Origin: Elusimicrobiota bacterium | Lineage (GTDB): Bacteria > Elusimicrobiota > JBDRON01 | NCBI GenBank assembly: GCA_043810025.1 | Contig: JBDRON010000056.1 | Span: forward strand, 19,377-83,376 | Reading direction: 5' to 3' | DNA length: 64,000 nt | Shown here: piece by piece, positions 6,838 to 63,413 of the stretch | Position numbering within the stretch: position 1 is the stretch's first letter | How the letters are laid out: each line of letters begins with the position of its first letter | Program-made: the position numbers and the translations under genes | Notes under the pieces: model-generated | What the model saw: only the letters and a program-made list of their open reading frames with translations | The model's database searches: none | What the model was told of the DNA's origin: nothing

Positions 6838-6865
6838 TAAAGGCTGGGGATCGTAAAAAGCGGAC

Positions 6866-6955
6866 AGGTCATGAGTCATGGGTTATGAGTTATGAGTTTA
6901 TAAAGAATAGAGTCTTTTAATCACAAGACACATGACTCATAACTTGTGACTTATT
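6866..6955. repeat. Family B long palindrome (tandem-heptamer arms + conserved AAAGAATAGAGTCTTTTAA centre), copy B1
   Basis: Arms GTCATGAGTCATGGGTTATGAGTTATGAG / CACAAGACACATGACTCATAACTTGTGAC; lies between nuoD and nuoH. Confidence 0.7.
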
Positions 6956-6982
6956 TTGGTAATTTAACAACCAAAGGTGATA

Positions 6983-9393: not shown

Positions 9394-9410
9394 ATCAACC
9401 GTATAATATT

Positions 9411-9505
9411 GGTCGTGAGTCATGAGTCTTGGGTTATGAGCTTGAAAGGAATCGATTCTTTTAGACTCAAGACTCATAACGCATGACTCAGGACTTGTAA
9501 CTTGC
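9411..9505. repeat. Family B palindrome, copy B2
   Basis: GGTCGTGAGTCATGAGTCTTGGGTTATGAGCTTGAAAGGAATCGATTCTTTTAGACTCAAGACTCATAACGCATGACTCAGGACTTG; between nuoK and nuoL. Confidence 0.7.
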
Positions 9506-11466: not shown

Positions 11467-11513
11467 TAGTTAAATTGAAGTTTTTTAAGATAAAATTGAA
11501 TGATTTTGGAAAA

Positions 11514-11572
11514 GTAGGGCAGGGCTTTAGCTCTGCGTTTTTTAAAGATGCAAGCCTAAAGGCTTGCCCTAC
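11514..11572. repeat. Family C nested-hairpin element (GTAG...CTAC bounded), copy C1
   Basis: GTAGGGCAGGGCTTTAGCTCTGCGTTTTTTAAAGATGCAAGCCTAAAGGCTTGCCCTAC; outer stem GTAGGGCA/TGCCCTAC enclosing two inner hairpins; between nuoL and nuoM. Confidence 0.65.
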
Positions 11573-11628
11573 ATTTTAAATCTAGTTTTAATTTTCCGAA
11601 TTAATCGGATTATCTAGGGAGAAAACAG

Positions 11629-14527: not shown

Positions 14528-14650
14528 AGGAAATTAGAAGTTTGTTGAAGTGTTCCCCCTTTTGAAAGGGGGATGAAGGGGGATTTTAAAATATTGATAA
14601 AATCTCCCCTACCCCTCTTTTTAAAGAGGGAAAAAAACGTCACAGGTGTG
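14528..14650 (+). repeat. Family A triple-hairpin REP-like element, copy A1
   Basis: GAAATTAGAAGTTTGTTGAAGTGTT-CCCCCTTTTGAAAGGGGG-ATGAAGGGGGATTTT...AAATCTCCCCTA-CCCCTCTTTTTAAAGAGGG-AAAAAAACGTCACAG; three consecutive stem-loops; immediately downstream of nuoN. Confidence 0.7.
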
Positions 14651-15580: not shown

Positions 15581-15684
15581 TGAGGACTAACTTAATTGAT
15601 AAATGAAGGCAAAAAAGCTTTTTTGACTAACTTGTGGATACTGTGGATAAGGTTGTGGATAACTATTACATACAAAAGAACACA

Positions 15685-15770
15685 GGTCATGAGTTGTGGG
15701 TCGTGGGTTGTGAGCTTAAAAGAATCGAGTCTTTTAATCTCAAGACTCATGACTCATAACCCATGACTTA
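15685..15770. repeat. Family B palindrome, copy B3
   Basis: GGTCATGAGTTGTGGGTCGTGGGTTGTGAGCTTAAAAGAATCGAGTCTTTTAATCTCAAGACTCATGACTCATAACCCATGACTTA; upstream of bamA. Confidence 0.7.
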
Positions 15771-15895
15771 TTTCGGGAATTTCGCAGGCAATCGCGGTTC
15801 TAGGGATCATAGTTCTGGTTTGACTTTTGCTGTAAAAATGGTAAGATAAATTAAACTAAACTATTATAAATTGGATTACAAGGAGTTTACTTAAG

Positions 15896-18229
15896 ATGAA
15901 AAAGCTACTGGTTTATTTTAACATAATTTGTTTTTTGTTTGGTCTTTTTCCGACCGCTGTCTTCGCCGAGACCGTCGATGTCTACACTGGAAAAAAAATC
16001 CGGGCAATAGAGATTAAGGGAAATAGAAATGTTAAGGAGAGCGCTATCCGGGAAAAAATGAAGTTGAGTAAAGGTGATTTCTATAATCAAGGAAGTGTCG
16101 ATGAAGATATTCAAAAAATTAATGAATTGGGTTTGTTCGACGAGGTTAAGGTTGATCTGGAAGAAGTGAAGAAAGGGGTGAAACTGATTTATTATTTGGT
16201 GGAAAAACCGATTATTAAAAAAATTGAGTTTAAGGGTAATAAAAAATTTCCTAACCGCCGGTTAAAAGAAAAAATTGCCAGTAAAGAAGAGGAGTCTTAT
16301 AACAAAACCAGAGTTGAAGATGATCTTGGCAAGCTGATCATTTTTTACAAAGATGAAGGTTATAGCGAGGTTAAAGTCGAAGCTTTTCCGGCTGTCGATG
16401 AAAAAACAAATCAAGCGGTGATAACCTTTTTTATTCGGGAAGGCAAACAGGTTTTAGTTGATAAAGTCCTTTTGAGCGGAACAAAAGATTTTAGCGCCAA
16501 GAAAGTGCTTAAAGGGATGAAACTGCGCAGGAAAAAGGTTTTTAAAGAAGATACTCTGCGGGCGGATATCAAGGAGATAGAAAGTTTTTATAAAAATCGC
16601 GGGTATTTGCAAGTGACGGTTGTCGAACCACAGATTACTTACAATAAGGAGCGGACAAAAGTCAGTATCGAAATAAAAGTTGTTGAGGGCAGGAAATTCA
16701 GGTTTGGAGCTATTACTTTTGAAGGGAGCAGTTTGTACCCGGAAAAAAAATTATTGACTAACCTTACCTTTAAACCCGGGCAGATTTTTTCCCAGCAGGA
16801 ACTGGACAAAAGTGTGGAAAATGTTCATCAGCTTTATTATAGCAAAGGATATCTGCGCTCGTTGGTGGAAGCTAAACAAGATGTGCAAGAGATTGCCGGT
16901 ATTTTAAATGTGGCCGTCAATATTACTGAGGGCGGGATTGTTTATATCGATCGGATTTATATTGAAGGCAATACCTTCACCAAAGATTATGTGCTCCGCC
17001 GGGAACTGCTGGTTAAGGAAGGGGATCCGTTTGATTTAACTAAAATTAAACGCAGTCAGGAAAAACTTTACAATTTGGGATTTTTAAAAGAGGTGTCGAT
17101 AGACATTCAAGAAACACCGGTTGAGGATAAGGCCGACTTGGCCATTGATATTAAAGAAGACAAGCCGGGAATTTTAACCATGGGCGCGGGCTATTCTTCC
17201 GTGGACCGGTTTTCCGGAACCTTGCAGGTTTCCCATGTCAATATGTTTGGCCTGGGCCAGCGTCTTAACCTGCTCTGGGAGTTCGGCCAGCGCAAACAGA
17301 ATTATGAAATCGGTTTTACTGAGCCCTGGATCTTCAGTAACCCGATTTATGCCGAAAGTCCTTCGGCTTTGTTTCGTTGGTTAAATCGCCATCAAACCAC
17401 CGCCGGTTTCGGTGTTTTTAACACGATTCGCAAAAGGCAGTATGGCACGGAGTCCGATGCTTATAAAGAACAGCGCCGGGGTGGAGATTTGCGCTTGGGC
17501 CGCAGTTTTACTGATTTCGTTTCGGGAAACCTTACATACTCTTATGAAGAAATAAAGCTATTTGATTCTATCGTGACCGATGTTAAACCTTCTCTGGCGG
17601 TTACCTCCAGCATTTCGTCCGGGTTATCCCGGGATAGCCGCGATAACATTTTTGATGCGGCCCGCGGGTCCCGAAATAGTGTTTCAGTGGAACTGGCCGG
17701 CGGTCCGGTTGGCGGGAATGTGCATTTCTACCGGCCGAGCGTTACCTCTTCCTGGTTTTTTCCGACCTTTTGGAAGTTTGTGTTTTCCACCAATTTGCGC
17801 TTGGGTCTGATTCGCTCTTTTCCACCATCATCAGAAATACCGGTCTATGAGCGGTACTATGTGGGTGGGGCGGATACGGTGCGCGGCTATGACTACCGCG
17901 GGCAAATCGGCCCTCAGGAAGGCGGCAATATCATGAGCGTGGTGAATGCTGAATACAAGTTTCCTTTTGTCGAAGAAGGCGGTCGGACAATATTGCAGGG
18001 AGCCTTCTTCTTTGATTTGGGCGGCGCCTGGCGGAACTTTCGGGATATAAGGTTAGCTCTGGGTAACGAAGAACTGAATTGGAAAGCCGGGGTGGGTTTC
18101 GGGATCCGGATTTTTGTGATGGCGGTATTCCCGATCAGGCTGGACTGGGGCTATGGTTTAAATCATCGCCGGGACATTCAAAAAGCCAGCCGTCACCAGT
18201 TCTACTTTACCATCGGCCAGGTGTTTTAA
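15896..18229 (+). CDS. bamA: outer membrane protein assembly factor BamA
   Basis: 777 aa; N-terminal signal peptide, repeated POTRA-like segments (IEFKGNKKF..., ITFEGSSLY..., IYIEGNTFT...); C-terminal beta-barrel ending ...FYFTIGQVF; followed by skp-lpxD. Confidence 0.9.
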   Translation: MKKLLVYFNIICFLFGLFPTAVFAETVDVYTGKKIRAIEIKGNRNVKESAIREKMKLSKGDFYNQGSVDEDIQKINELGLFDEVKVDLEEVKKGVKLIYYLVEKPIIKKIEFKGNKKFPNRRLKEKIASKEEESYNKTRVEDDLGKLIIFYKDEGYSEVKVEAFPAVDEKTNQAVITFFIREGKQVLVDKVLLSGTKDFSAKKVLKGMKLRRKKVFKEDTLRADIKEIESFYKNRGYLQVTVVEPQITYNKERTKVSIEIKVVEGRKFRFGAITFEGSSLYPEKKLLTNLTFKPGQIFSQQELDKSVENVHQLYYSKGYLRSLVEAKQDVQEIAGILNVAVNITEGGIVYIDRIYIEGNTFTKDYVLRRELLVKEGDPFDLTKIKRSQEKLYNLGFLKEVSIDIQETPVEDKADLAIDIKEDKPGILTMGAGYSSVDRFSGTLQVSHVNMFGLGQRLNLLWEFGQRKQNYEIGFTEPWIFSNPIYAESPSALFRWLNRHQTTAGFGVFNTIRKRQYGTESDAYKEQRRGGDLRLGRSFTDFVSGNLTYSYEEIKLFDSIVTDVKPSLAVTSSISSGLSRDSRDNIFDAARGSRNSVSVELAGGPVGGNVHFYRPSVTSSWFFPTFWKFVFSTNLRLGLIRSFPPSSEIPVYERYYVGGADTVRGYDYRGQIGPQEGGNIMSVVNAEYKFPFVEEGGRTILQGAFFFDLGGAWRNFRDIRLALGNEELNWKAGVGFGIRIFVMAVFPIRLDWGYGLNHRRDIQKASRHQFYFTIGQVF

Positions 18230-18232
18230 TAG

Positions 18233-18328
18233 TGCAAAACGCAAAGCGCAAAACGCAAAATGCAAAGTCAAAAGCATCGAGTCTTTAAAAGTCCTTAAGT
18301 TTTGCGCTTTGCGCATTGAGTTTTACGC
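18233..18328. repeat. Family B-type palindrome, copy B4 (arms built from GCAAAAC heptamers)
   Basis: TGCAAAACGCAAAGCGCAAAACGCAAAATGCAAAGTCAAAAGCATCGAGTCTTTAAAAGTCC...TTTTGCGCTTTGCGCATTGAGTTTTACGC; same centre as B1-3 but different arm heptamers. Confidence 0.65.
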
Positions 18329-18358
18329 TATTATGTTTGTTGGGGGGGAGTCAAAAAT

Positions 18359-23287: not shown

Positions 23288-23316
23288 TTGACAATACAAG
23301 TTATAACTTGTATACT
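23288..23316 (+). promoter_or_regulatory. sigma70-like promoter TTGACA-17-TATACT with a palindromic operator (CAAGTTATAACTTG) in the spacer, upstream of higB-like/higA-like
   Basis: Consensus -35 at 23288-93, 17-nt spacer that is itself a perfect 14-bp palindrome, -10 TATACT at 23311-16. Confidence 0.5.
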
Positions 23317-23340
23317 CTTATTAGAAATAAAGAGTAAAAG

Positions 23341-23688
23341 ATGCTGAAAAATATCTATTATTTTGTAGATGAACGGGGTGATAACCCGGTTAGAGAATTT
23401 ATAGATTCTTTGCCGATTAAAGAACGGGCAAAGATATTTGCTTACATTGAAGAATTAAGAAATCAGGGTCACAATTTGCGTAGGCCGATAGCGGATTATT
23501 TAGGTAACGATATTTATGAACTAAGACCTAAAAGCAATAGAATCTTTTATTTCTTCTTTTTAAAAGATAACGCGGTTTTGGTTCATGCCATAAAAAAGAA
23601 GACGGACAAAATTCCCAATGCCGATTTAAACTTAAGTATAAAAAGAAAAGGGTTGGTTGAGGAGTATGAACGAGTAGAAAAAATATAA
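23341..23688 (+). CDS. type II toxin, HigB-like / phage-related Gp49 (RelE/ParE superfamily)
   Basis: 115 aa, MLKNIYYFVDERGDNPVREFIDSLPIKERAKI...; followed 8 nt later by an XRE HTH gene (toxin-first HigBA arrangement). Confidence 0.68.
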   Translation: MLKNIYYFVDERGDNPVREFIDSLPIKERAKIFAYIEELRNQGHNLRRPIADYLGNDIYELRPKSNRIFYFFFLKDNAVLVHAIKKKTDKIPNADLNLSIKRKGLVEEYERVEKI

Positions 23689-23704
23689 TAGTGAGGTGAG
23701 CGGG

Positions 23705-24031
23705 ATGAAAAAAATTAAATTAGAAAAAATCGACGACCATTTAAACGCGGAATTAAAGAATGAAGAATTCAGAAGGAATTTTGAATTAGAAAGAGCTAAA
23801 GTATCGTTGGCTCAAAAAATAGCGGAGCTGAGACAGGATAAAAAACTGAAACAAATTGATCTCGCCAAGAAACTGCATGTTTCGCAGCAATTCATTTCCC
23901 TGATTGAAACTGCGCAAGAAAAGAATTTGACTCTGGAAACTTTAGTAAAAATTGCCAAGTCCTTGGGAAGAAGTGTCAAAATTTCTTTCCCCAAAGCCTC
24001 TGCCCAAGGTGCTCATCTCAAGATAGCATAA
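23705..24031 (+). CDS. HigA-like antitoxin, XRE-family HTH DNA-binding protein
   Basis: HTH region LRQDKKLKQIDLAKKLHVSQQFISLIE; GAGGTG RBS before ATG 23705. Confidence 0.68.
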   Translation: MKKIKLEKIDDHLNAELKNEEFRRNFELERAKVSLAQKIAELRQDKKLKQIDLAKKLHVSQQFISLIETAQEKNLTLETLVKIAKSLGRSVKISFPKASAQGAHLKIA

Positions 24032-24119
24032 TTTGTTTGAATACAAAGTAACAGATAAAAAAATACAGCCGACTAATTTTAGTTTAATTCCCTAGTTTAA
24101 GAATATAAGTAAGTTTAAT

Positions 24120-24593
24120 ATGAGTGAAGAAGAAAAATACGAGTACGATAGTAATATTTTGTCAATAAAGTATACAAAAATTACTGATACGATACCTGTT
24201 TCTGGTGCGAATACATCTACCAGTATATTTTGGGATCAAACAGAAATGCCTGATGCCGGAGTTCTTAAATTTTTAGAACCTTGTGGTCGGAATTGGAGAT
24301 TCGGAAAACTGGAAAATGAAATGAAGTATGTAGCGAGGGTGCACCACAAATTAAAATCAAATTCTAAAGGTAATTTCTATACTTTAATATGGAGTTGGAA
24401 AGATATTCATCAAGTAAAGGAGTGGCTTGAATTAGACGGTGTTGCAATAGACTTAAAAACAAAATTTGTTATTAGGCCAGGATGTTTAATCGCAATTGGG
24501 AATTTTAAGAAAAACAATAATCATCAAATTTATGTAAAAGAAAAAGAGGAATTTGTTCTTGAAATTACAGAAAGTACTACTAATATAGAATGA
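24120..24593 (+). CDS. hypothetical protein (ORF A of AT-rich island), translationally coupled to the next gene
   Basis: 157-aa ORF in a markedly AT-rich segment; 4-bp overlap (ATGA) with the downstream ORF; no recognisable motif. Confidence 0.5.
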   Translation: MSEEEKYEYDSNILSIKYTKITDTIPVSGANTSTSIFWDQTEMPDAGVLKFLEPCGRNWRFGKLENEMKYVARVHHKLKSNSKGNFYTLIWSWKDIHQVKEWLELDGVAIDLKTKFVIRPGCLIAIGNFKKNNNHQIYVKEKEEFVLEITESTTNIE

Positions 24594-25666
24594 AAACTTC
24601 TCCGATAAAACAATTACCAAACAATGACTATTTAATAAATCCTGGTGCTTCATTTGAAATGCATCTTTATAATACCGACATCAATACCGTAACCGAACTA
24701 GTTAATATTATGAAAAAAGGTGAGGAAGAAGGATCAGGAACTGGCGTTGTTAACTGTAAATTGTTGGAATTACTAGTAAAAAATAATGTTAGATGCCGTG
24801 AAATTGATTCTTATGTAAATGAATTTCGGCCACAATATATTCAAAATCTAAAAACATATTCTGGATTAAATGTTGACTGGCAGAGTATTAATGAAATTGA
24901 TATAAGTAGTATTCCAGAAGAAATCAGAAAAAAAGCAGTTGATGAGTTGCGCATAAAACCAGACACTAATATAGAGGTTTTGTTTAAACTTTATCCTTGT
25001 GATGATTCTGTGCCGATAGAAGTATTTAGGAAGTATCCCTTTAAAGTTATAGTAAAATATCTTAATGTTTGGGATCGGGGCAAAGAATTGAAAGTTATTC
25101 CTCTGGAACACCGAGATAGAAAAATTTACGAGAAAATGGTTGAATTGAATCTGTCTATGCAAGGGGAAGCAATTCCGCTTAAAGATATATTAGTGACTTT
25201 GAAATTATCTGAATTAAAGGAAATCGGTTTAAAGGTAAATACAGAGCCATCAAATAAGAAAGAAAAAGTTATTGAAAATTTACTGAGCAAAGAAGGTGTT
25301 GAAAAACAAATTCAAGGTAGTATTAATCTTAAAGACTATTTTAAACTTATTTCTATCGAACGAGAGTTTGGCTCCGATATATTCAGTAAATTAAATTCAT
25401 CCATTAAATATAATGAACTTAATGCAGACTTAATTGGGAGAACTTTTTTATTCTCTTATTACAATGATTCTAGGGATAATTCCTGGTCGAATCCAATATC
25501 TTCTGAACTAATCACAGGATATGAAATTTCAATGGTTTCCGATGCAAGATGTTGCCCTTACTGTAAAGATATGAAAGGAAAAAAGTTTGACAAAGTTAAT
25601 TGTCCTAAAATACCATTGCATTTGGCTTGTCGATGTGCGAAAGTCCCGCTAACAAAATATGGCTAA
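24590..25666 (+). CDS. hypothetical protein (ORF B) with SAP-like helix-extended-helix motif and C-terminal Mu-F/SPP1-gp7-like zinc-ribbon motif (CxYC...PLHxxCRC)
   Basis: 358 aa; LKDILVTLKLSELKEIGLKVNT...KKEKVIENLLSK resembles a SAP DNA-binding motif; C-terminus CCPYCKDMKGKKFDKVNCPKIPLHLACRCAKVPL resembles the conserved end of phage head-morphogenesis (Mu F) domains. Confidence 0.5.
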   Translation: MKTSPIKQLPNNDYLINPGASFEMHLYNTDINTVTELVNIMKKGEEEGSGTGVVNCKLLELLVKNNVRCREIDSYVNEFRPQYIQNLKTYSGLNVDWQSINEIDISSIPEEIRKKAVDELRIKPDTNIEVLFKLYPCDDSVPIEVFRKYPFKVIVKYLNVWDRGKELKVIPLEHRDRKIYEKMVELNLSMQGEAIPLKDILVTLKLSELKEIGLKVNTEPSNKKEKVIENLLSKEGVEKQIQGSINLKDYFKLISIEREFGSDIFSKLNSSIKYNELNADLIGRTFLFSYYNDSRDNSWSNPISSELITGYEISMVSDARCCPYCKDMKGKKFDKVNCPKIPLHLACRCAKVPLTKYG

Positions 25667-25702
25667 AGTATTTGAATAAAACACTGTATTAGGGGATTAA
25701 AT

Positions 25703-26155
25703 ATGTCGGGATCATTTTTATACATTGGAATTCATTTTATTTTTAGTACAAAAAATCGTGTGAACATAATTACTAGCGAAATAAAAGATAGGTTGTATTC
25801 CTATATTGGCGGAATAATAAAATCAATTAAAGGTATACCAATTGCTATAAATGGAATGCCTGATCATATCCATGTTTTTTGTATTGTATCACGGGAAATG
25901 ACCATTGCTGATTTTATGCGTATTGTTAAATCAAATTCATCAAAATGGTTGAATGAAACTTTTCCTGTTAAGCCAAAATTCCAATGGCAAGACGGATACG
26001 GTTCGTTTTCAGTCACTAAATCATCAGAAAATAAAATCATTGAATATGTAAAAAATCAAGAAGAACATCATAAACAAAAATCATTTCAGGATGAATTTAT
26101 TGAATATTTAAGATTGATGAAAATTGACTATGATGAAAGATATATATGGCAATAA
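25703..26155 (+). mobile_element. tnpA: IS200/IS605-family Y1 HUH transposase (TnpA) / REP-associated tyrosine transposase (RAYT)-like, solitary
   Basis: 150 aa; HUH motif MPDHIHVFCIV; C-terminal catalytic Tyr in EYVKNQEEHH (Y-x-x-NQ motif of IS200 TnpA/RAYT); no tnpB partner. Confidence 0.75.
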
Positions 26156-26400
26156 TACTCCGCCGCCCCGTTGGGGCTTATATTTTCATGGGTGATTATA
26201 GCGGGGATTACATCCCCGCCTATAATCCGCAATCCCTTCGGGATAATAAATTGAAAAAGATTGTAGTATGCTTTTATTTGTCCTGAAAGGACAACGGAAT
26301 ATAGGCGGGGGGCTTGCCCCCCGAAAATGAAATATTCCATGAACGATAAGCCCTGAAAGGGCGGAGGAAAAGCGCCCAAATTATTTATAAATTTTCAGTG
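26156..26400 (+). other. structured GC-rich hairpin cluster downstream of tnpA (possible IS end / REP-like hairpins / small RNA)
   Basis: Hairpins TATAGCGGGGATTACATCCCCGCCTATA (26195-26225), GTCCTGAAAGGAC, GGCGGGGGGCTTGCCCCCCG (about 26300-26322), GCCCTGAAAGGGC; the outer complement CTCCGCCGCCCC...GGGCGGAG frames the region. Confidence 0.45.
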
Positions 26401-26592
26401 TAATAAAAAGAGGTAAGCTATGGATTTCAAAATTTTATCTACTCACTCGTGGGGCGGAGATTTGACAGAAAAAAATTATTGGCCTAGAATCGGGGGAAAG
26501 TTTCCCTATTACGAAATTATCTGGTCGAAGGTTATAGCGCTCTTAACAAAGAGATCAGACAATTTACTTTTGGTTTAAAAAGGGGGGGTGTT

Positions 26593-27498
26593 ATGAAAAA
26601 TTTTTTTGAGAAAAATAAAATATTCTTGGGTATAATTATAGCCGGTTTGATGATTGCCGCAGCTATTTATTTTGGTTTAAATAAGCCGGCTGATAAAGAA
26701 AAATATTTATCATTATCGTCCTCGCCGTCTCCTGCCCAAAGTTTGGCGCCGGCTGAGGCTCTTGTCACTAAAGTTATCGATGGTGATACGATAATTGTTG
26801 AAGGCGGTTATAATGTCCGGCTTTTGGGTATTGATGCTGATGAGGCGGGTTATCCCTGTTACGAAGCAGCCAAAAAACGCTTAGAAGAATTGATTTTAAA
26901 TAAAACGGTGAGATTGGAAAAAGACCAAACCGATGTTGACCAATATAAAAGATATTTGAGGTATATTTTTCTTGACGACAAAAATATATGTTTAGAGTTG
27001 GTAAAAGAAGGCTTGGCAATTGCCAGATTTTATGAGCCGGATAGAAAATACAAAAACGAGATTGTTTCCGGCGAAAAAGAAGCGATTGAGAAAAAAGTTG
27101 GTTGCAAATGGTCCGCTTCCACCAATGTTTCGGCGGATAAATTATCTTACGAAAAAAACGAATTCTCCTATGAGAAATTAACCACGGGGAAGACCGGTTT
27201 AAAAGTAGTTGGCGCTTACCAATCAGGGAATTATTACGGAAGAGAAGTCATTGTGGAAGGAAAAGTAGTTGGCGCTTATCGCTCAAAAACAAATATAGTT
27301 TTCTTAAATTTTGATAAAACCTATCCCAATCAATATTTTGTCGGAGTTATTTTTAGTTCAGACCAGTATAAGTTTGTTGAGGCGCCGGAAAAATATTATG
27401 CGGGAAAAACCGTTAGAATCAAAGGAAAAATTAAGGAGTATCGCGGCAAACCGGAAATTATTATAAAAGACCCTTCCCAGATTGAGATAGGAAAATAA
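26593..27498 (+). CDS. membrane-anchored thermonuclease (SNase-like) with C-terminal OB-fold domain
   Basis: N-terminal TM; SNase core VIDGDTIIVEGGYNVRLLGIDADE...RYLRYIFLDDKN...; C-terminal OB-fold-like repeat (KVVGAY...KGKIKEYRGKPEIIIKD). Confidence 0.72.
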   Translation: MKNFFEKNKIFLGIIIAGLMIAAAIYFGLNKPADKEKYLSLSSSPSPAQSLAPAEALVTKVIDGDTIIVEGGYNVRLLGIDADEAGYPCYEAAKKRLEELILNKTVRLEKDQTDVDQYKRYLRYIFLDDKNICLELVKEGLAIARFYEPDRKYKNEIVSGEKEAIEKKVGCKWSASTNVSADKLSYEKNEFSYEKLTTGKTGLKVVGAYQSGNYYGREVIVEGKVVGAYRSKTNIVFLNFDKTYPNQYFVGVIFSSDQYKFVEAPEKYYAGKTVRIKGKIKEYRGKPEIIIKDPSQIEIGK

Positions 27499-27735
27499 AC
27501 TCATATATGCAAAGTCAAAATAAAAAAGGGAAAAATCTTTTTACAGTATCAAAAATTAGAGGGTATTGATTGGTTATGAAACTCACTAAAAAAGATTCAG
27601 AGACAATTTGTGATGTTTTTTTGTTTTCTGGTAAATATGATCTTATGGATGGAAATTGATAATGAGTAAAGAGACAATAGAAAAGCTCACAAATACAATT
27701 GCTCAAAATACCGAACCTAAAATTCAGCCGCGTAT

Positions 27736-27764
27736 TGTATATAACTGCGCATAATTAAAGGGAC
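27736..27764. repeat. left arm of a 29-bp perfect inverted repeat (TATATAACTGCGCATAATTAAAGGGACAT)
   Basis: Exact reverse complement found at 27958-27986; the pair flanks a 193-bp segment containing Family A copy A3. Confidence 0.8.
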
Positions 27765-27817
27765 ATCAGCAAAAGTGTCATAGCAACGAAAGCTGGTATC
27801 CAGAAAGTGTGATATAC

Positions 27818-27957
27818 AGAAATTTGAATGTTTGTTTTGCGTATATTCCCCCTTAAAAAAGGGGGACACAGGGGGATTTTGAAAATTAGAAATATTGTCT
27901 AAATCTCCCCTACCCCTCTTTTTAAAAGAGGGGAAAAAATACCACAGAACGAAACTC
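27818..27957 (+). repeat. Family A triple-hairpin element, copy A3 (inside the 29-bp IR pair)
   Basis: GAAATTTGAATGTTTGTTTTGCGTATATT-CCCCCTTAAAAAAGGGGG-ACACAGGGGGATTTTGAAAATTAGAAATATTGTCTAAATCTCCCCTA-CCCCTCTTTTTAAAAGAGGGG-AAAAAATACCACAG. Confidence 0.7.
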
Positions 27958-27986
27958 ATGTCCCTTTAATTATGCGCAGTTATATA
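27958..27986. repeat. right arm of the 29-bp perfect inverted repeat; contains the start codon of the downstream wHTH gene
   Basis: ATGTCCCTTTAATTATGCGCAGTTATATA; ATG 27972 (MRSYIVEK...) lies inside it. Confidence 0.8.
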
Positions 27987-28196
27987 GTCGAAAAAATAGA
28001 GGATAAAAACATAATTGTAGTTGATGTAAATGAATCTATTTATTTAAGAGAACATAAAGAAATAACTAGAAATGAATGTATGGAATTATTGAATTTAACG
28101 AGAGATATTGCAATTAGAGAACTTTTATCGTTGAAGAGAAAGGGAATTATTAAACAAATTGGTAAAGGGAAGAACATTTATTATGTACTTGTCTAA
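27972..28196 (+). CDS. small winged-helix DNA-binding protein (possibly a gene fragment)
   Basis: 74 aa; ...ITRNECMELLNLTRDIAIRELLSLKRKGIIKQIGKGKNIYYVL resembles C-terminal wHTH domains of Fic/AAA-type regulators; the start is embedded in the inverted repeat. Confidence 0.4.
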   Translation: MRSYIVEKIEDKNIIVVDVNESIYLREHKEITRNECMELLNLTRDIAIRELLSLKRKGIIKQIGKGKNIYYVLV

Positions 28197-28256: not shown

Positions 28257-29237
28257 ATGGCTAAAATAAAAGTTGCGGTTGTTGGGGTGGGGCATTTGGG
28301 GCAGCATCATGCGCGGGTTTATTCCCAGTTGCCGGAAGCGGAATTGGCGGCGGTGGTGGATAACGATTTTTCTGCGGCGCAGAAGTTTGGGAAAAAATTT
28401 GGCTGTGCGGCTTTGGCGGATTACCGGCAAATTTTGGGCAAAGTTGAGGCGGTTTCGCTGGTCGTGCCTACCCCGCTGCATTTTTCCATCGGCAAAGATT
28501 TGCTTTCTGCCGGTCTGCATGTTTTAATCGAAAAACCACTGGCTTCCTCTTTGGAAGAAGCGGAAGAATTAATTGCCTTGGCTCAGCAAAAAAACTCCAT
28601 ACTGCAAGTCGGGCATATCGAACGGTTTAACAGCGGCCTGGTAGAAACGCAAAAGTATATCAGCCGGCCGCGGTTTATTGAAGCTAACCGGCTGGGGCCT
28701 TACGATCCCCGCACCGGTCATATCGGGGTGATCCTGGATTTGATGATTCACGATCTGGACATAGTTTTACAGTTGGTTAATTCCAAGATCGAAACAATCG
28801 AGGCGGATGCGGCGGCGGTTTTTTCCGGCCACGAGGATATCGCCAAAGTGCGTTTAAGGTTTGCCAACGGTTGTATCGCCGATTTATCGGCAAGCCGGAT
28901 TTCTCTGGAAAAATTTCGTAAAATAAGAATTTTTCAGCCGGAGAGTTATATTTCGCTGGATTATATCCGTCAGGAGCTGAAAATTTATCGCAAGAAAGAG
29001 TCGGTGGAGCAGGTTAAATCCCTGATGGACATTGAGGTTATCCGTCCAAAGTTAAAAAGCCAGGAACCTTTGCAGGAAGAGCTGAAACATTTTCTGGAAT
29101 GCGTCCGAACCGGTAAAACCCCGCTGGTCACCGGCGAACACGGCCGCGGCGCCCTGGAGCTGGCTTTGGAAATTTTAAAGAAAACAAAAGTACAAGTAGT
29201 AAATAGTCCACAGTCCACGGTCCACAGTCCACACTAA
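28257..29237 (+). CDS. Gfo/Idh/MocA-family NAD(P)-dependent oxidoreductase (possible UDP-GlcNAc 3-dehydrogenase GnnA-like, lipid A associated)
   Basis: Rossmann N-terminus MAKIKVAVVGVGHLGQHHARVY; immediately upstream of lpxB-msbA; the last 11 codons (NSPQSTVHSPH) are encoded by a GTCCACA heptamer-repeat arm. Confidence 0.75.
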   Translation: MAKIKVAVVGVGHLGQHHARVYSQLPEAELAAVVDNDFSAAQKFGKKFGCAALADYRQILGKVEAVSLVVPTPLHFSIGKDLLSAGLHVLIEKPLASSLEEAEELIALAQQKNSILQVGHIERFNSGLVETQKYISRPRFIEANRLGPYDPRTGHIGVILDLMIHDLDIVLQLVNSKIETIEADAAAVFSGHEDIAKVRLRFANGCIADLSASRISLEKFRKIRIFQPESYISLDYIRQELKIYRKKESVEQVKSLMDIEVIRPKLKSQEPLQEELKHFLECVRTGKTPLVTGEHGRGALELALEILKKTKVQVVNSPQSTVHSPH

Positions 29238-29290
29238 TAACAGCTCCTTTTATTTTTATTCTGTGGTCAGTGGACTGTCGACTGTGGACG
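29217..29290. repeat. heptamer-arm palindrome (GTCCACA x4 ... TGTGGAC x2) at the oxidoreductase 3' end
   Basis: GTCCACAGTCCACGGTCCACAGTCCACAC-TAATAACAGCTCCTTTTATTTTTATTC-TGTGGTCAGTGGACTGTCGACTGTGGAC; same architecture as Family B with a different centre. Confidence 0.65.
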
Positions 29291-29306
29291 AAGTAACTTT
29301 GATATT

Positions 29307-35236: not shown

Positions 35237-35400
35237 GAATTTAAGAAACACTTCAGCCAGGGGAAGTCCGTGGGAATCGGACACTGCCCCGCAACGGTGA
35301 TTCCTTCCGCCATCAGGCGGATTGGATAAGTCCGGTCTACTGTCTGAAGCATAAATCCTAAAAAGTGTTTTTAGGATTGCCTGCGCGGGCGGGATGGGTT
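35237..35400 (+). promoter_or_regulatory. cobalamin (AdoCbl) riboswitch
   Basis: B12-box-like core ...AGGGGAAGTCCGTGGGAATCGGACACTGCCCCGCAACGGTGA... (the conserved ...GCCACTG... region appears as CACTGCC); 5' UTR of the cobO-btuFCD-cobCUTS operon. Confidence 0.75.
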
Positions 35401-36023: not shown

Positions 36024-36683
36024 ATGAGCAAAATAGTTTATTTAGTAAAAAGAAGTTTGTTGTTAAGTTTTGCGTTTTGCGCTTTGCACTTTACGCTTGT
36101 TTTCGCGGCTTCACCGCAAAGGATTGTCTCTTTGTCGCCTTCCGTAACGGAGATACTTTTTTTGCTTGGTTTGGGGGATAAAGTGGTCGGGGTCACCACT
36201 TCCTGCGATTATCCGCCGCTGGCCAAAGAAAAATTTAAAGTTGGTGATTTTTCCAATCCGAACCTGGAAAAAATTGTTGCGCTTCAACCGGATCTGGTTT
36301 TTGTTACCGACGGCATACAGGAGCCGCTGGCGCGGAAATTGAGGCAGTTTGGTTTAAGGGTGGAGGTGGTTGCCCCCCAGAATATTGAAGGGATTCTCCG
36401 CTCATTTGTTTCAATTGGTGAATCTACCGGAACAAGCGGGCCGGCGATGAGGTTGGTAAAAGAAATTCGCCGCAGGTTGAATAAGGTTGAGGTGAAAGTT
36501 GCCGCTGTTCCCCGGGAGAAAAGGCCGAAAATTTTTCTGGAGATTTGGCCTAAACCCTTGATGACGGTCGGCAAAGACTGTTTTGTTGACCTTGACCCGG
36601 ATTTATTGCTGCGCACCGGACCGCGTTTTGTCCAGGGGGTAGAAGATTTGTACCGGATTTTCTACCCGGATGATAAACCATGA
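36024..36683 (+). CDS. btuF: periplasmic cobalamin-binding protein (ABC substrate-binding, BtuF-like)
   Basis: Signal peptide, then PQRIVSLSPSVTEILFLLGLGDKVVGVT (BtuF/FecB family). Confidence 0.78.
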   Translation: MSKIVYLVKRSLLLSFAFCALHFTLVFAASPQRIVSLSPSVTEILFLLGLGDKVVGVTTSCDYPPLAKEKFKVGDFSNPNLEKIVALQPDLVFVTDGIQEPLARKLRQFGLRVEVVAPQNIEGILRSFVSIGESTGTSGPAMRLVKEIRRRLNKVEVKVAAVPREKRPKIFLEIWPKPLMTVGKDCFVDLDPDLLLRTGPRFVQGVEDLYRIFYPDDKP

Positions 36684-37459: not shown

Positions 37460-37560
37460 TGATGTTATGTGTGTTCCCCTTTTAGAAAGGGGGATAAGGG
37501 GGATTTAGAAAATAATTACTAAATCTCCCCTAACCCCTCTTTATAAAAGAGGGGAATAAG
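37460..37560 (+). repeat. Family A triple-hairpin element, copy A4
   Basis: TGATGTTATGTGTGTT-CCCCTTTTAGAAAGGGGG-ATAAGGGGGATTTAGAAAATAATTACTAAATCTCCCCTAA-CCCCTCTTTATAAAAGAGGGG-AATAAG; between btuC and btuD. Confidence 0.7.
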
Positions 37561-37578
37561 AAATGAGGTGCCTAACTA

Positions 37579-39457: not shown

Positions 39458-40513
39458 ATGGAAAAAGTGGAAGAAATTGTAGTGAAAATTGCCGGGCTTG
39501 ATTCGGATCTGCTAAGGAGGACACAAGAAAGGTTGGATAATCTTACCAAGCCGCCGGGCAGTTTGGGAAGGCTGGAAGAGTTGGCCAGGATGATCGTCGG
39601 AATGACCGGAAAAGCTAACCCCTCTTTGGACAACAAGGTTATTTTTACCCTTGCTGCTGATCATGGAGCGGCGGAGGACGGGGTCAGCGCTTATCCCCGG
39701 GAAGTGACGGCTCAGATGGTTTATAATTTTTTAAATGGCGGGGCGGCGATCAATGTTTTGGCTAAGCATGCGGGGGCGAGGGTGGTGGTCGTGGATCTGG
39801 GAGTGGCCGTCGATTTAAAACCTCATCCGGAGTTAATGATTAAAAAAATAAATTATGGGACAAAAAACATGCGCCAGGGGCCGGCGATGAGCCGTGGGGA
39901 AGCGATAAAATCCATCGAAGCCGGGAAGGAAATTTTTCAGGTGGCGGCGGAGAAAGGGATTGATATCGCCGGGACCGGAGATATGGGCATTGGGAATACG
40001 ACGGCCAGCGCGGCTTTAACGGCTGTTTTTACCGGCCGGGCTGTGGAGGATGTTACCGGCCGCGGTACCGGCCTTGAGGATCAGGCTTTAAAAAACAAAG
40101 TTGCCTTTATTGCTGAGGCGATAGGCTTAAACAAGCCGGATAAAAACGATCCGTTGGATGTGCTGGCTAAACTGGGCGGGTTTGAGATCGGGGGGTTGGC
40201 CGGAATAATTTTGGCGGCTGCTTCCCGAAGGGTGCCGGTGGTGATTGATGGTTTTATTTCCGGGACGGCGGCTTTGCTGGCTTATCAGCTAGAGCCAAAA
40301 GTTAAGGATTATCTGATCGCTTCGCATTGTTCGGTAGAAAAGGGGCATAAAATAATTCTTGATTTTATTGGTTTAAAACCGTTTTTGGATTTGAATTTAA
40401 GGTTAGGCGAAGGAACGGGAGCGGCCTTGGGCATCAGTCTGGCCGAAGCTAGTATAAAAATATTAACCCAAATGGCCACCTTTGCCAAAGCCGGAGTTTC
40501 CACAAAAAAGTAG
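39458..40513 (+). CDS. cobT: nicotinate-nucleotide--dimethylbenzimidazole phosphoribosyltransferase
   Basis: CobT family (KPPGSLGRLEELA..., GIGNTTASAAL, ...ALGISLAEASIKIL); AAGGAG RBS before ATG 39458 (track start 39374 is an over-extension). Confidence 0.88.
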   Translation: MEKVEEIVVKIAGLDSDLLRRTQERLDNLTKPPGSLGRLEELARMIVGMTGKANPSLDNKVIFTLAADHGAAEDGVSAYPREVTAQMVYNFLNGGAAINVLAKHAGARVVVVDLGVAVDLKPHPELMIKKINYGTKNMRQGPAMSRGEAIKSIEAGKEIFQVAAEKGIDIAGTGDMGIGNTTASAALTAVFTGRAVEDVTGRGTGLEDQALKNKVAFIAEAIGLNKPDKNDPLDVLAKLGGFEIGGLAGIILAAASRRVPVVIDGFISGTAALLAYQLEPKVKDYLIASHCSVEKGHKIILDFIGLKPFLDLNLRLGEGTGAALGISLAEASIKILTQMATFAKAGVSTKK

Positions 40514-40516
40514 TAG

Positions 40517-40590
40517 TTGTGGGTCATGGGTCTTGAGCTCAAAAGACTCGATTCCTTTAAAATCACAACCCATGACACACAACTCAGAAC
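40517..40590. repeat. Family B palindrome, copy B5
   Basis: TTGTGGGTCATGGGTCTTGAGCTCAAAAGACTCGATTCCTTTAAAATCACAACCCATGACACACAACTCAGAAC; between cobT and cobS. Confidence 0.7.
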
Positions 40591-40616
40591 CATTACTTTA
40601 GGGAGCTTGTTTTATC

Positions 40617-41360
40617 TTGAAAGAGTTTTTATTGGCTTTACAGTTTTTAACGATCATACCGCTGGGATCTACGGAGGTGTTCGAGGAAAAAAAACTTCTT
40701 CGGGCGCCGGCGTTCTTTCCGCTCGTCGGACTGCTGATCGGTTTAATTTTAGCCGGAATGAATAATATTCTCTCATGGCTGTCCGTAGAACAGTTTTTGT
40801 CTAATGCTGTTCTACTGGTCTTGCTGATTGTTTTAACCGGAGGACTGCATCTGGATGGATTGGCCGATACTTTTGACGCTTTAGGCAGTGGAAAAGATCG
40901 AGCTCGCCGGCTGGAAATTATGCGCGATTCCCATATCGGGACGATGGGTGTTTTAAGCCTGATCAGTCTTCTTTTGCTGAAACTGGCGCTTCTCTGTTCT
41001 TTGGTCCCGGTCTTAACGAATAATTCTTTAATTCTGATGTGTTTATTAAGCCGGTATGCTTTAATTTTGGCGATGTTTTTGTTCCCTTACGCCCGCCAGG
41101 AAGGTAAAGCAAAACTTTTTATGCAGGGAATGAATTATAAGGTTTTTTTTCTGGGAAGCGGGCTAAGCTTAGCTTTCTCCTTAATTTTTTTTCAACTCCA
41201 GGGGGTGATATTTTTTATTTTAGTAACCATCTTTGTTTTTTTAGCCGGTAAATATGCGGCGAATAAGATTGGCGGAATTACCGGAGATGTTTTAGGGGCG
41301 ATCAGCGAATTGACCGAAATTTTTGTCCTCTGCAATGTTTTAATTTTGAGTAAATTTTAA
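40617..41360 (+). CDS. cobS: adenosylcobinamide-GDP ribazoletransferase (cobalamin synthase)
   Basis: Polytopic membrane protein starting LLALQFLTIIPL (CobS signature); TTG start. Confidence 0.85.
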   Translation: MKEFLLALQFLTIIPLGSTEVFEEKKLLRAPAFFPLVGLLIGLILAGMNNILSWLSVEQFLSNAVLLVLLIVLTGGLHLDGLADTFDALGSGKDRARRLEIMRDSHIGTMGVLSLISLLLLKLALLCSLVPVLTNNSLILMCLLSRYALILAMFLFPYARQEGKAKLFMQGMNYKVFFLGSGLSLAFSLIFFQLQGVIFFILVTIFVFLAGKYAANKIGGITGDVLGAISELTEIFVLCNVLILSKF

Positions 41361-43347: not shown

Positions 43348-43462
43348 TTTTGGGGGATCAGTTGTATTAAAATGTCCCCCTTTGATAAAGGGGGATTAAG
43401 GGGGTTGGGTTTTATATTTTTAAACTCCCCTAACCCCTCTTTAATAAAGAGGGGAATTAAAG
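43340..43462 (+). repeat. Family A triple-hairpin element, copy A5
   Basis: GAATTGATTTTGGGGGATCAGTTGTATTAAAATGT-CCCCCTTTGATAAAGGGGG-ATTAAGGGGGTTGGGTTTTATATTTTTAAACTCCCCTAA-CCCCTCTTTAATAAAGAGGGG-AATTAAAG. Confidence 0.7.
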
Positions 43463-44867: not shown

Positions 44868-44905
44868 TTTAATTTACTGCAAGTCACAGGCTGCAAGCAG
44901 CCTGT
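44868..44905. repeat. palindrome GCAAGTCACAGGCTGC-AAGC-AGCCTGTGACTTGC
   Basis: Perfect 16-bp stem; shares the CAAGTCACAGGCTGCA core with the 45295-45365 element. Confidence 0.6.
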
Positions 44906-45005
44906 GACTTGCGGCCTGCTTCATAATATATACATGGAAAGAAAGAAAATTTCCACTGTTTTTTTTAAAAATAAGGGGGGGTGCTGGGTTTGAGGAAAAA
45001 CGATT

Positions 45006-45995: not shown

Positions 45996-47132
45996 ATGCG
46001 CGAGCCAAAAATACTTTTTCTTTATATTTCGGTTAGTTCCGGCCATCAACAGGCGGCTGAATCAATTCAAAAAGCGATAAAAGAAATTGTCCCGGAAGCA
46101 AAGACTTTAGGGTTGGATTCCTTTAATTATGCCTATCCTTTTGTGGGCAAATTTATTGCCGGCACTTATCTGCAAATTGTTAAACGGACACCATTTCTTT
46201 GGGATTATCTTTACGATAACCCCGATGTGGTTACCGCCACGCAGGAAATTCGCGAGGTGTTAAACCGCCTTAATTCCAGGAAATTCAAAAAATTGCTTGC
46301 CTCGTTTCATCCTTCGGCCGTTGTTTGTACCCAGGCTGTTCCCTGTAGTGTGGTGGCTGCCGCGAAACGACACCGGAAGATTAACGTGCCGTTGATCGCC
46401 GTGATTACGGATTTTGCCGCCCATGCTTACTGGGTTTATAAAGAAGTCGATGCTTATGTCGTGGCTAATGAGAGTACCCGGCGGGAACTGATGAAAAAAG
46501 GCATCCCCGAAGAAAAAATTTATCTCTTTGGCATCCCGATCAATCCGGTGTTTAATCAGCAGGTCGGAAAAGAAGACGCCCGGCTCAGTTTGGGGTTTAA
46601 ACCCAATTTGCCGGTCTTATTGGTAATGGGCGGCAGTCAAGGGCTGGGGCCGATCGAGAGTATACTCTCCGCCCTGGATTGGATATCCATTCCTTTTCAG
46701 GTGGCGGTAATTACCGGACTGAATGAAAAATTGCGGCGTTCTTTAAAAAAAGATTTTGCCAAAAGTATTCATCGGTTTCACATTTTTGGTTATATCGATG
46801 GGATTGACAAGTTTATGGAAGCGGCGGATATTTTGATTACCAAACCCGGTGGATTAACGTCTTCAGAGGCCTTGGCAAAAGGTTTGCCGATGATTATTGT
46901 CAATCCGATACCCGGTCAGGAGGAAAGAAACAGCAGTTATTTAATTAAACATGGTGTTGCTGAACGCGCGGATAATCTTGAAGAATTGGCTCATTATGTA
47001 AGTGATTTTTTTTCTCATCCGGTAAAACTGTCCCGGATGCGCCATCAAGCCCTCTCCATGGCCCAGCCTGATGCGGCTTATAATACGGCTTTATTGGTTT
47101 TGAAACAAATCGGCTGGCCGACAATAGTGTAA
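45996..47132 (+). CDS. glycosyltransferase family 28, MGDG-synthase/UgtP-like (diacylglycerol glycosyltransferase)
   Basis: N-terminal KILFLYISVSSGHQQAAESI (MGDG_synth domain signature) and C-terminal GT-B fold (LVMGGSQG..., ITKPGGLTSSEALAKGLPMIIVNPIPGQEERN). Confidence 0.75.
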   Translation: MREPKILFLYISVSSGHQQAAESIQKAIKEIVPEAKTLGLDSFNYAYPFVGKFIAGTYLQIVKRTPFLWDYLYDNPDVVTATQEIREVLNRLNSRKFKKLLASFHPSAVVCTQAVPCSVVAAAKRHRKINVPLIAVITDFAAHAYWVYKEVDAYVVANESTRRELMKKGIPEEKIYLFGIPINPVFNQQVGKEDARLSLGFKPNLPVLLVMGGSQGLGPIESILSALDWISIPFQVAVITGLNEKLRRSLKKDFAKSIHRFHIFGYIDGIDKFMEAADILITKPGGLTSSEALAKGLPMIIVNPIPGQEERNSSYLIKHGVAERADNLEELAHYVSDFFSHPVKLSRMRHQALSMAQPDAAYNTALLVLKQIGWPTIV

Positions 47133-47190
47133 AACGCAAAGCGCAAAACTTAAAGTCAAAAGATAAAAGAATCAAGTTAGTCGCTTTCGG
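47129..47190. repeat. half Family B element (GCAAAAC-type arm + AAAAGAATCAAG centre, right arm missing), copy B8
   Basis: GTAAAACGCAAAGCGCAAAACTTAAAGTCAAAAGATAAAAGAATCAAGTTAGTCGC, abutting Family A copy A6. Confidence 0.5.
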
Positions 47191-47204
47191 CGCTGACTTT
47201 TAAA

Positions 47205-63310: not shown

Positions 63311-63408
63311 AGTCGTAGTCTTGAGCCATGGGTCTTGAGTCTTGAGTCTTGAGTTTAAAAGAATCGATTCCTTTAAACTCAGAACCCATGACACATAACG
63401 CATGACCC
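63311..63408. repeat. Family B palindrome, copy B6
   Basis: GTCGTAGTCTTGAGCCATGGGTCTTGAGTCTTGAGTCTTGAGTTTAAAAGAATCGATTCCTTTAAACTCAGAACCCATGACACATAACGCATGACC; between the HK stop and the RR start within a minus-strand operon. Confidence 0.7.
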
Positions 63409-63413
63409 GTTAG

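Follow-up and report, generated by a model that had tools for sequence, protein, structure and literature searches.

How does a bacterial genome come to carry long hairpins whose stems are built from seven-nucleotide units, and what keeps them there? The question is raised by a 64,000-nt stretch of a metagenome-assembled genome (MAG) of an Elusimicrobiota bacterium (84-kb contig JBDRON010000056.1 of assembly GCA_043810025.1, positions 19,377 to 83,376; hereafter the window), where six operon spacers contain elements of 83–107 bp, here called family B, that place a conserved palindromic core at the tip of a stem of tandem heptamers. A preliminary description of the window had read them as perfect palindromes with freely varying arms, generated by templating or by replication slippage. 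We find instead that five of the six are homologous over their full length, arms included. With moderate confidence, we regard family B as a set of dispersed, non-coding repeats, specific to its lineage and able to form hairpins, of the type of miniature inverted-repeat transposable elements (MITEs) and repetitive extragenic palindromes (REPs), in an uncultivated Elusimicrobiota genome.

A recurrent palindromic core at the tip of heptamer-armed hairpins

The 18-nt core AAAAGAATCGATTCTTTT, which is palindromic in its own right, has six matches in the window at up to three mismatches (starting at 6901, 9445, 15718, 18270, 40541 and 63357), against 0.21 expected; no shuffle attained six. Each core is the midpoint of an inverted repeat with a stem of about 37 bp, whose tip is the conserved palindrome AAARGAATCGAKTCTTTT, and every one of the six matches lies inside a heptamer hairpin, none standing alone. 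The recurrence of a palindromic core between inverted heptamer arrays in operon intergenic spacers, as the preliminary description proposed, is therefore confirmed, and the copies had been located correctly to within a few bases, with the core central in each inverted repeat. We number the six full copies E1 to E6 along the window. Five of them form one type, B1 (83–103 bp, about 76% identical, with a consensus structure of 37 pairs), and E4 represents a second arm type, B2, of which there are one full copy and two partial copies. The core is better conserved than the arms (pairwise identity 0.88 versus 0.76), and all copies fold more stably than dinucleotide shuffles (z = −5.7 to −9.2). A covariance-model (CM) search of the window found no additional B1 copy, only other hairpin families.

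The seven-nucleotide periodicity of the arms, also noted earlier, is borne out by two approaches. Tandem Repeats Finder (TRF) resolves the arms into tandem 7-mers, and a scan of lags 4–12 (threshold 15) is specific to a lag of seven, returning 15 segments there versus 0–5 at the other lags. Two short motifs are unevenly distributed with respect to the elements. The palindromic hexamer TCATGA, contained in the consensus heptamer, occurs five times in the window, four of them inside family-B elements, where about 19 would be expected outside by base composition; many other palindromic hexamers are as depleted in the window. Inside the elements, GANTC reaches 19 times its density in the rest of the window. 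An explanation by restriction or methylation was considered for these distributions; it is weakened by the general depletion of palindromic hexamers just mentioned.

Arms are shared between copies and pair as a family

The five GTCATGA-type B1 copies (starting at 6864, 9408, 15682, 40504 and 63311) can be aligned along their full length with 76% column identity, so that the earlier picture of arms that differ between copies and vary freely does not hold for five of the six. The related claim, that one core is combined with different arms, stands in a single case, the copy at 18233 with its GCAAAAC units, and fails for the other five, which share an arm type. Tabulating the heptamers leads to the same result. 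The 20 aligned units of the 5′ arm read G(20) T(20) Y R T(20) G(20) R, and the 20 of the 3′ arm read N C(18) A(18) W R A(18) C(19). The heptamer has a skeleton, GT..TG. /.CA..AC, with four of its seven positions invariant in the 5′ arm (20/20 units) and retained in 18–19 of 20 units in the 3′ arm; consequently, all variation is limited to three positions per unit.

The arms are also less than perfectly complementary. Global alignment of the left arm with the reverse complement of the right gives 69–78% identity, rising to 82–91% paired when G·U pairs are allowed on one strand. The preliminary description held that each right arm complements its own left arm, copy by copy. When the letters of the 3′ arm were dealt among the B1 copies, 91.0 ± 0.8% of cells remained paired, compared with 91.7% observed (136 of 500 shuffles were as high), and the covariation scores of B1 equal the shuffle mean. 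Swapped partners therefore pair as well as native arms, and the pairing belongs to the family consensus rather than to any single copy. In the absence of copy-specific pairing, templated arm generation in each copy is ruled out for B1. The remaining mismatches are of the G·U type on one strand, which is the opposite of what is expected if one arm were templated on the other or copied from one strand. Because the whole B1 element is homologous, arms included, the copied unit is the entire hairpin. As far as sequence can tell, the arms are not made afresh in each copy.

The B2 copy E4 adds a further observation. Its tip, AAAAGCATCGAGTCTTT, matches the E3 core at 16 of 17 positions although its arms are of the GCAAAAC type, and one tip is therefore common to two arm types. 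By blastn, the E4 core matches E3, and its arms match 47123–47149 and 36063–36090.

Whole heptamers are gained and lost in one arm at a time

Arm length shifts by whole heptamers, one arm at a time. In E6, the copy starting at 63311, one arm has six units and the other four, which departs from the symmetry first described; its left arm on the + strand contains three consecutive identical GTCTTGA units that are unmatched in the other arm. E2 is likewise asymmetric, and the partial B2 copy at 47123 equals an E4 arm less exactly one heptamer. Such one-arm gains and losses of whole units fit slipped-strand gain and loss, not mirrored templating. Of the processes suggested earlier, replication slippage is thus a plausible force in shaping the arms, given the identical units of E6 and the fragment that falls one heptamer short of the copy at 18233.

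The hairpins are strand-polar, independently of gene direction

When both strands are folded as RNA, they differ by 8–15 kcal/mol in each copy, the + strand being better in E1–E3 and the − strand in E4–E6. With the copies aligned together and each oriented by its better strand, that strand has 25 G·U pairs and the complementary strand three. The transition-type arm mismatches, counted as wobble-on-plus to wobble-on-minus, run 6:2, 5:1, 6:1, 2:5, 0:4 and 1:6 from E1 to E6, and they are heterogeneous across copies (chi-square 17.1, p = 0.004; permutation p = 0.002), a statistic that covers 39 mismatches, some of them shared by descent, in copies whose orientation was first set by folding energy. 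Several wobble pairs recur in most or all copies (one of them, the U·G at columns 30:66, in 5/5), and an unpaired loop asymmetry, CGAG, is common to the + strands of E1 and E3 and the − strand of E5. At least part of the polarity thus goes back to a master sequence by descent.

The copies lie in both orientations, and their polarity has no tie to the direction of the host genes: the favoured strand is the sense strand in four of the five B1 copies, whereas E5 is antisense and the B2 copy E4 weakly so. Mutational strand bias was considered as a source of the G·U polarity and ruled out. GC skew is positive along the entire window, yet the polarity differs between copies; with a constant skew, a replication-linked mutation bias is unable to yield opposite polarities. 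An orientation bias relative to replication, as in IS200/IS605-type insertion, was also looked for and was not seen among the few copies available (three plus, two minus).

Copies occupy spacers between co-directional genes

All six copies occupy spacers between a stop codon and a ribosome binding site, flanked by co-directional genes. Five of seven elements start 0–27 nt past the stop codon, and in every full copy but E3 the following start codon is about 10–30 nt past the far end. Genes of the window lie nearly all on the + strand, and their order by Pfam includes an 11-gene nuoABCDHIJKLMN operon; coaX, bamA, skp, lpxD, lpxC-fabZ and lpxA; cobT/cobS; and a histidine kinase and response regulator pair on the − strand. 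Pfam thereby supports all six contexts given in the preliminary description (nuoD|nuoH, nuoK|nuoL, coaX|bamA, bamA|skp, cobT|cobS and kinase|regulator).

The three B1 copies of + orientation come first along the window. E1 (6864..6956, core 6901–6918) lies between nuoD (stop 6837) and nuoH (ATG 6984). Its boundaries were fixed by the CM search, which is also among the evidence for E2, E3, E5 and E6, and TRF detects its heptamer array. The RNA fold of E1 has −33.9 kcal/mol (z −5.7), and in the comparison of strands the + strand is favoured by −34.8 versus −26.4 kcal/mol. E2 (9408..9500, core 9445–9462), between nuoK (stop 9393) and nuoL (probable ATG 9511), favours the + strand by −43.7 versus −31.8 kcal/mol (z −7.7). 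E3 (15682..15773, core 15718–15735), between coaX (stop 15470) and bamA (ATG 15896), is the best-formed copy, with a 37-bp stem and a fold of −48.2 kcal/mol (z −9.2), versus −33.2 kcal/mol on the − strand. The same spacer holds a trio of DnaA boxes on the − strand (15633–15662), 20 bp upstream of E3, comprising two perfect copies of TTATCCACA and one with a single mismatch; only three perfect boxes exist in the whole window. The trio marks no obvious oriC, because the GC skew does not switch there.

E4 (18226..18332, core 18270–18287), to which no orientation was assigned, lies between bamA and skp, and the bamA stop codon (18227–18229) falls within its end, AATAG. Its − strand folds better (−40.3 versus −32.1 kcal/mol), and its mismatch asymmetry of 5:2 is not significant. 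The two B1 copies of − orientation are E5 and E6. E5 (40504..40594, core 40541–40558), between cobT (stop 40513) and cobS (TTG 40617), favours the − strand by −37.2 versus −27.9 kcal/mol, with five versus zero G·U pairs, antisense to the genes. E6 (63311..63410, core 63357–63374), whose neighbouring genes are both encoded on the − strand, is flanked by the C-terminus of a histidine kinase (stop 63414) and by a response regulator that starts with an ATG at about 63279; it favours the − strand by −42.6 versus −29.0 kcal/mol.

Two B2 fragments accompany E4. The half element placed at 47129 by the preliminary description is real: at 47123..47200 (+ strand), the shortened E4-type arm, which matches the left arm of E4 over 27 nt at 96% (blastn, E = 8e-8), is followed by a degenerate core half, AAAAGAATCAAGT, and the other arm has been replaced. 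The second fragment, an arm remnant of GTTTTGC units at 36063..36098 (+ strand), was found by the lag-7 scan and matches the E4 arms over 20 nt at 100% and 24 nt at 92% (blastn). The remnant forms part of a gene for a BtuF-like periplasmic binding protein (Pfam Peripla_BP_2), in whose 5′ end it encodes the hydrophobic core of a predicted signal peptide, LLLSFAFCALHFTLVFA. A possible reading is that a repeat arm has been exapted as a signal-peptide core, which, if true, would be a small example of repeat exaptation. An adenosylcobalamin (AdoCbl) riboswitch at 35238–35379 (Rfam RF01482, 53 bits) precedes a gene cluster (btuR/cobO, btuF-like, FecCD, ABC ATPase, cobC, cobU, cobT, cobS).

Two further sites had been listed as relatives, at 29217 and 45295. 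Both share the heptamer architecture, but neither has the core or a sequence match. The former is a heptamer-arm hairpin (29197..29291, no orientation assigned) made of (AGTCCAC)4, an unrelated 28-nt loop and then inverted units; it folds at −42.3 kcal/mol (z −6.8) and has no blastn relative within the window. The latter is chiefly a direct heptamer array with a weak fold. A perfect palindrome of 16+16 nt, GCAAGTCACAGGCTGC, stands at 44879–44912, and its arm recurs 430 bp away at 45329–45344, at the start of a direct heptamer array; palindrome and recurring arm flank a small − strand open reading frame (ORF) at 45006–45257 that has no Pfam match.

Two distant relatives lack the nuoD|nuoH spacer, and the window's only Y1 transposase belongs to another unit

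The NuoD of the window matches NCBI protein MFH1259225.1 at 100% identity, and the runner-up among 5.8 billion proteins searched is only 65% identical, so that the lineage is one without close sequenced relatives. An orthologous-locus comparison, an approach named in the preliminary description, was carried out at nuoD|nuoH in the two nearest available relatives, both distant. The two genes overlap by 4 bp in one (L111) and are 11 bp apart in the other (L112), compared with 139 bp in the window; neither relative has a comparable spacer, which favours insertion over an origin in place. Other, unrelated hairpin repeats fill the nuo spacers of L111. Together with the further families of the window, these indicate that such genomes evidently accumulate hairpin repeats in operon spacers, and the presence of at least two further hairpin repeat families in the window shows that this genome is permissive for such elements.

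The only Y1 (HUH) transposase of the window (25703–26155, 150 aa, Pfam Y1_Tnp 2.3e-26) scores above the cut-off for IS200 in NCBIfam (69 bits) and reaches 21 of the 80 bits needed for REP_Tyr_transpos. Its gene is flanked by CCCCGCCTATAAT-type hairpins that are common to homologous loci in two unrelated metagenome contigs (L141 and L143). The 210 nt downstream of the gene fold at −99 kcal/mol (z −7.2) with no Rfam match, and the modules there, GGGGATT.ACATCCCCGCCTATAATC..AATCCCT.CGGGAT, recur in tandem on both sides of the homologous genes in L141 and L143. The unit spans 25703–26366 in the window, 9800–10990 in L141 and 1706–2025 in L143, with genes 66–75% identical. Judged by these conserved flanks, the gene and its hairpin modules form a REPtron/TIRtron-like unit apart from family B; hairpins of this kind occur nowhere else in the window and are unrelated to family B by blastn. 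A link of family B to an IS200-like transposase or a REP-associated tyrosine transposase (RAYT) was accordingly rejected within the window, the Y1 gene having conserved flanking hairpins of its own. Integron attC sites, which also follow stop codons, conserve structure and are strand-polar, were rejected as well: the element ends do not fit RYYYAAC / GTTRRRY, the copies lie in housekeeping operons, and Pfam scans found no integrase. Pfam scans of all long ORFs likewise found no parent insertion sequence (IS) with the same ends in the window.

A role as terminators was examined in the same manner. An intrinsic terminator scan called no whole element; its pattern was matched by two short sub-hairpins only, inside E3 (− strand) and E4. 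No U-tract accompanies the stems, which are of great length and rich in A/U, and E1 and E2 lie within the 11-gene nuo operon. At the gathering score and at E ≤ 1, Rfam matched nothing on the elements; elsewhere in the window it matched only the AdoCbl riboswitch and one sub-threshold item.

The family looks lineage-restricted, while heptamer hairpins occur elsewhere

In JGI metagenomes, the core with its first 3′ heptamer has no match, and the core with its flanks has 28, all of them without arms. A pattern scan of IMG/VR for family B gave no match, nor did blastn of E3 against plasmids and phages. On the basis of these scans, the family looks lineage-restricted. In GTDB genomes the bare 18-nt core has chance-level matches in at least 110 unrelated genomes, and among the matches listed none is a core with heptamer arms; the one listed match that adjoins a heptamer array (L082) lies within the signal-peptide coding sequence of a sulfatase.

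As an incidental background, we used 110 such chance-core loci from unrelated genomes (0.8 Mb). Lag-7 arrays are commonest there too (30 versus 6–18 at other lags), and hairpins with heptamer arms or inverted heptamer arrays appear in a Chitinophaga MAG (L007, 4435–4515), a deltaproteobacterial MAG (L013, 1979–2264 and 4087–4173) and a Roseivirgaceae MAG (L082, 1–213). Hairpins of this architecture are thus not confined to the window, where their density is about 25 times that of the background.

Comparison with known repeat systems

By analogy, the closest architectural precedent of family B is found in the heptanucleotide-repeat hairpins of Nostoc. Family B shares with these a stem of base-paired degenerate heptamers, variation in unit number, non-heptamer sequence inside the hairpin (here the core at its centre) and more than one class of repeat. 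Small dispersed repeats (SDRs) of 21–27 nt, lying within the heptameric repeats of Nostoc, were reportedly described by Elhai et al. in 2008. The P6b hairpins of the Nostoc tRNA-Leu (trnL) intron, as described in a paper that cites Costa 2002 (PMC3488679), are formed by base pairing of degenerate heptanucleotide repeats, and their variants differ by unit number and by non-heptamer inserts. They differ from family B in being cyanobacterial and intron-borne, with Class 1 and Class 2 motifs, whereas family B is from Elusimicrobiota, has other heptamers, is dispersed through intergenic spacers and carries a fixed palindromic tip. Two further sources state that SDR5 inserts precisely within HIP1 (PMC4390886) and that heptanucleotides are the commonest long simple repeats in prokaryotes, ascribed to slippage (Mrazek 2007, via PMC4679880). 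The SDRs are also cited in PMC3116915.

REPs, with their composites known as REPINs and bacterial interspersed mosaic elements (BIMEs) and their Y1 HUH enzymes (RAYTs), resemble family B as imperfect intergenic palindromes that often lie just past coding regions and inside operons, in both orientations, with a built-in strand asymmetry that is read in single-stranded form. However, REPs are 20–40 bp, G+C-rich and tagged with GTAG or CGTC (PMC3733652), and family B departs from them in its size (83–107 bp), its A/T-rich stems of about 37 bp, its lack of a consistent tag and, within the window, its want of a cognate RAYT. Bacterial MITEs (Correia/NEMIS, ERIC, RUP, Nezha) are non-coding, 70–300 bp long, have inverted ends and lie beside genes; they are co-transcribed as long hairpins, and those adjacent to genes change the stability of mRNA through the stable structures into which their RNA folds (PMC3733652). 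Family B resembles REPs and MITEs in where it lies and in its probable consequences. It agrees with the definition of MITEs only in size and inverted ends, the whole element being an inverted repeat; its seven-nucleotide arm periodicity is not a MITE feature, and neither a target-site duplication, looked for at fuzzy ends, nor a parent IS was found in the window. In Geobacter metallireducens, multicopy intergenic sites of paired inverted tandem hepta- or octanucleotides were read as putative regulator binding sites (PMC2700814). These too have three to five tandem units of 7–9 nt paired on opposite strands, but the spacing between paired sites is variable and no common central core is described.

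Weighing the origin and role of family B

With five B1 copies, one full B2 copy and two B2 fragments in 64 kb, family B is an unusual-looking yet essentially ordinary sort of bacterial intergenic repeat. We envisage that copies would arise by duplication and transposition of a master sequence via a single-stranded form (RNA or single-stranded DNA), mobilised in trans by a putative enzyme. The seven-nucleotide period would be kept and varied by slipped-strand mispairing, as has been proposed for heptanucleotide repeats generally. Once inserted, the elements would be co-transcribed with the operon, and their long A/U- and G·U-rich stems, having no U-tract, would not terminate transcription; the transcribed stem may act as a barrier to 3′-exonucleases, may serve as a processing site for a double-strand RNase or may merely be tolerated. 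A putative function of family B would probably lie at the RNA level.

Several observations weigh against this reading. All copy counts come from one 64-kb window of one Elusimicrobiota MAG, and the polarity statistics have a small n. No shared or copy-specific direct repeat at the element ends points to a target-site duplication, the ends being fuzzy from unit gain and loss. There is no consistent terminal tag (GTAG adjoins only E5 and E6, on the + strand, and is absent at E1–E3), and the window contains no cognate transposase. At about 24% divergence the copies are old, so that any current mobility is hypothetical. The antisense placement of E5, and more weakly of E4, argues against a purely mRNA-level function. 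Finally, the skeleton positions are fixed even at sites where a 3′-arm transition would still allow a G·U pair, and a skeleton fixed beyond the needs of stem pairing hints at sequence-specific recognition.

The last point bears on the first of two alternatives. The heptamers could be sites in double-stranded DNA, with the palindromic 18-bp core operator-like and the GT..TG units acting as iterated half-sites for a nucleoid-associated or global regulatory protein. The skeleton exceeds what stem pairing needs, GANTC is enriched and the Geobacter sites were interpreted in the same way; we nevertheless consider it quite improbable, because the copies lie inside operons just past stop codons and not at promoters, a protein that binds double-stranded DNA would not see the wobble asymmetry, consecutive sites 7 bp apart would not lie on the same side of the helix, unit numbers are unequal between arms and no candidate binding protein was found. 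The other alternative is modular: the 17–18-nt apical palindrome would be a tiny mobile element in itself, like the 21–27-nt SDRs of Nostoc, homing to the tips of older heptamer hairpins. This would account for the same core at the exact centre of two unrelated arm types, for its higher conservation and for core-less heptamer hairpins at 29197–29291 and in unrelated phyla (L007, L013, L082). It is rather unlikely, however, in view of the homology of the whole B1 element, which was copied as a unit; the core never stands alone in the window, it is never in a heptamer context among the 28 JGI metagenome matches or the listed matches at the 110 or more GTDB loci, and there is but one full B2 copy. 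A more ambitious version is improbable: the tip as an independent micro-mobile module homing via a single-stranded intermediate, the invariant GU..UG / CA..AC skeleton as the recognition code of a binding or mobilising protein, and the cyanobacterial SDRs in heptamer repeats as one instance of a multi-phylum mechanism that would extend to Elusimicrobiota, with heptamer-arm hairpins also in Bacteroidota and deltaproteobacterial MAGs. The fixed skeleton, the gene-independent polarity and the single tip with two arm types keep a modular or single-strand-recognition reading alive at low probability.

Two explanations that dispense with dispersal fare worse against the data. Regulatory RNA hairpins that evolved at each locus, as terminators, attenuators or processing sites, and came to look alike by convergence would fit very stable hairpins that all lie in intercistronic spacers and mostly pair better on the sense strand. 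Convergence is nevertheless impossible to reconcile with 76% identity across about 90 nt at unrelated loci, and that identity already largely refutes it; the missing U-tracts and terminator calls, the absence of the nuoD|nuoH spacer in two distant relatives and the antisense copy make it very unlikely. Template switching in quasi-palindromes is an established mutational mechanism (Ripley; Lovett), and fold-back synthesis or template switching around a recognised centre could in principle copy one arm from the other in each element. The B2 arms, unlike those of B1 yet mutually complementary, would suit such a process, but the incomplete Watson–Crick complementarity, the polar G·U-type mismatches, the equal pairing of swapped arms and the unequal unit counts in E6 and E2 leave it barely credible.

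If a family of MITE/REP-type dispersed hairpins holds genome-wide, it would be a clean non-cyanobacterial example of hairpin repeats with stems of 7-nt units, and it would join two classes that are usually treated apart, dispersed palindromic repeats and heptanucleotide simple repeats. The G·U polarity, which does not follow the direction of the host genes, suggests an intermediate or product in single-stranded form and may offer a handle on the mobilising or binding factor. Placement in essential operons (complex I, BamA–Skp–Lpx, cobalamin salvage) could affect stoichiometry or mRNA processing. In annotation, the elements inflate spurious ORFs (for example, 40517–40765 and the 5′ extension of 62648–63403) and can break assemblies.

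Other repeats and a low-G+C island in the window

A second dispersed family (GGGGGAT) has six sites, at 14552–14635, 27843–27934, 37470–37562, 43370–43461, 47223–47310 (inverted) and 60433–60513, each with three consecutive short G+C-rich hairpins (TTCCCCCTTTTGAAAGGGGGAT / AAGGGGGATTT..AAATCTCCCCT / CCCCTCTTT..AAAGAGGGG). This arrangement resembles a cluster of REPs of the BIME type. The third family of hairpins, GTAGGGCAGGGCTTTAGC...GCAAGCCTAAAGGCTTGCCCTAC, is present at 11512–11576 (nuoL|nuoM) and at 52016–52093, after a NUDIX gene; a hairpin resembling it, CGCAGGCTTTAGCCTGCG, lies in the nuoH|nuoI spacer of the Firestonebacteria-like relative (L111, 12178–12240).

The region from about 23300 to 28000 is an island of low G+C content (31–36%, versus about 44%). 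It encodes a Gp49-like/HTH (helix-turn-helix) pair resembling a toxin–antitoxin system, the Y1 transposase, a staphylococcal-nuclease-like protein and two further proteins without a Pfam match, one with a weak SPP1 gp7-like domain. Lying between lpxI and the lpxB region, the island probably represents an insertion of acquired DNA.

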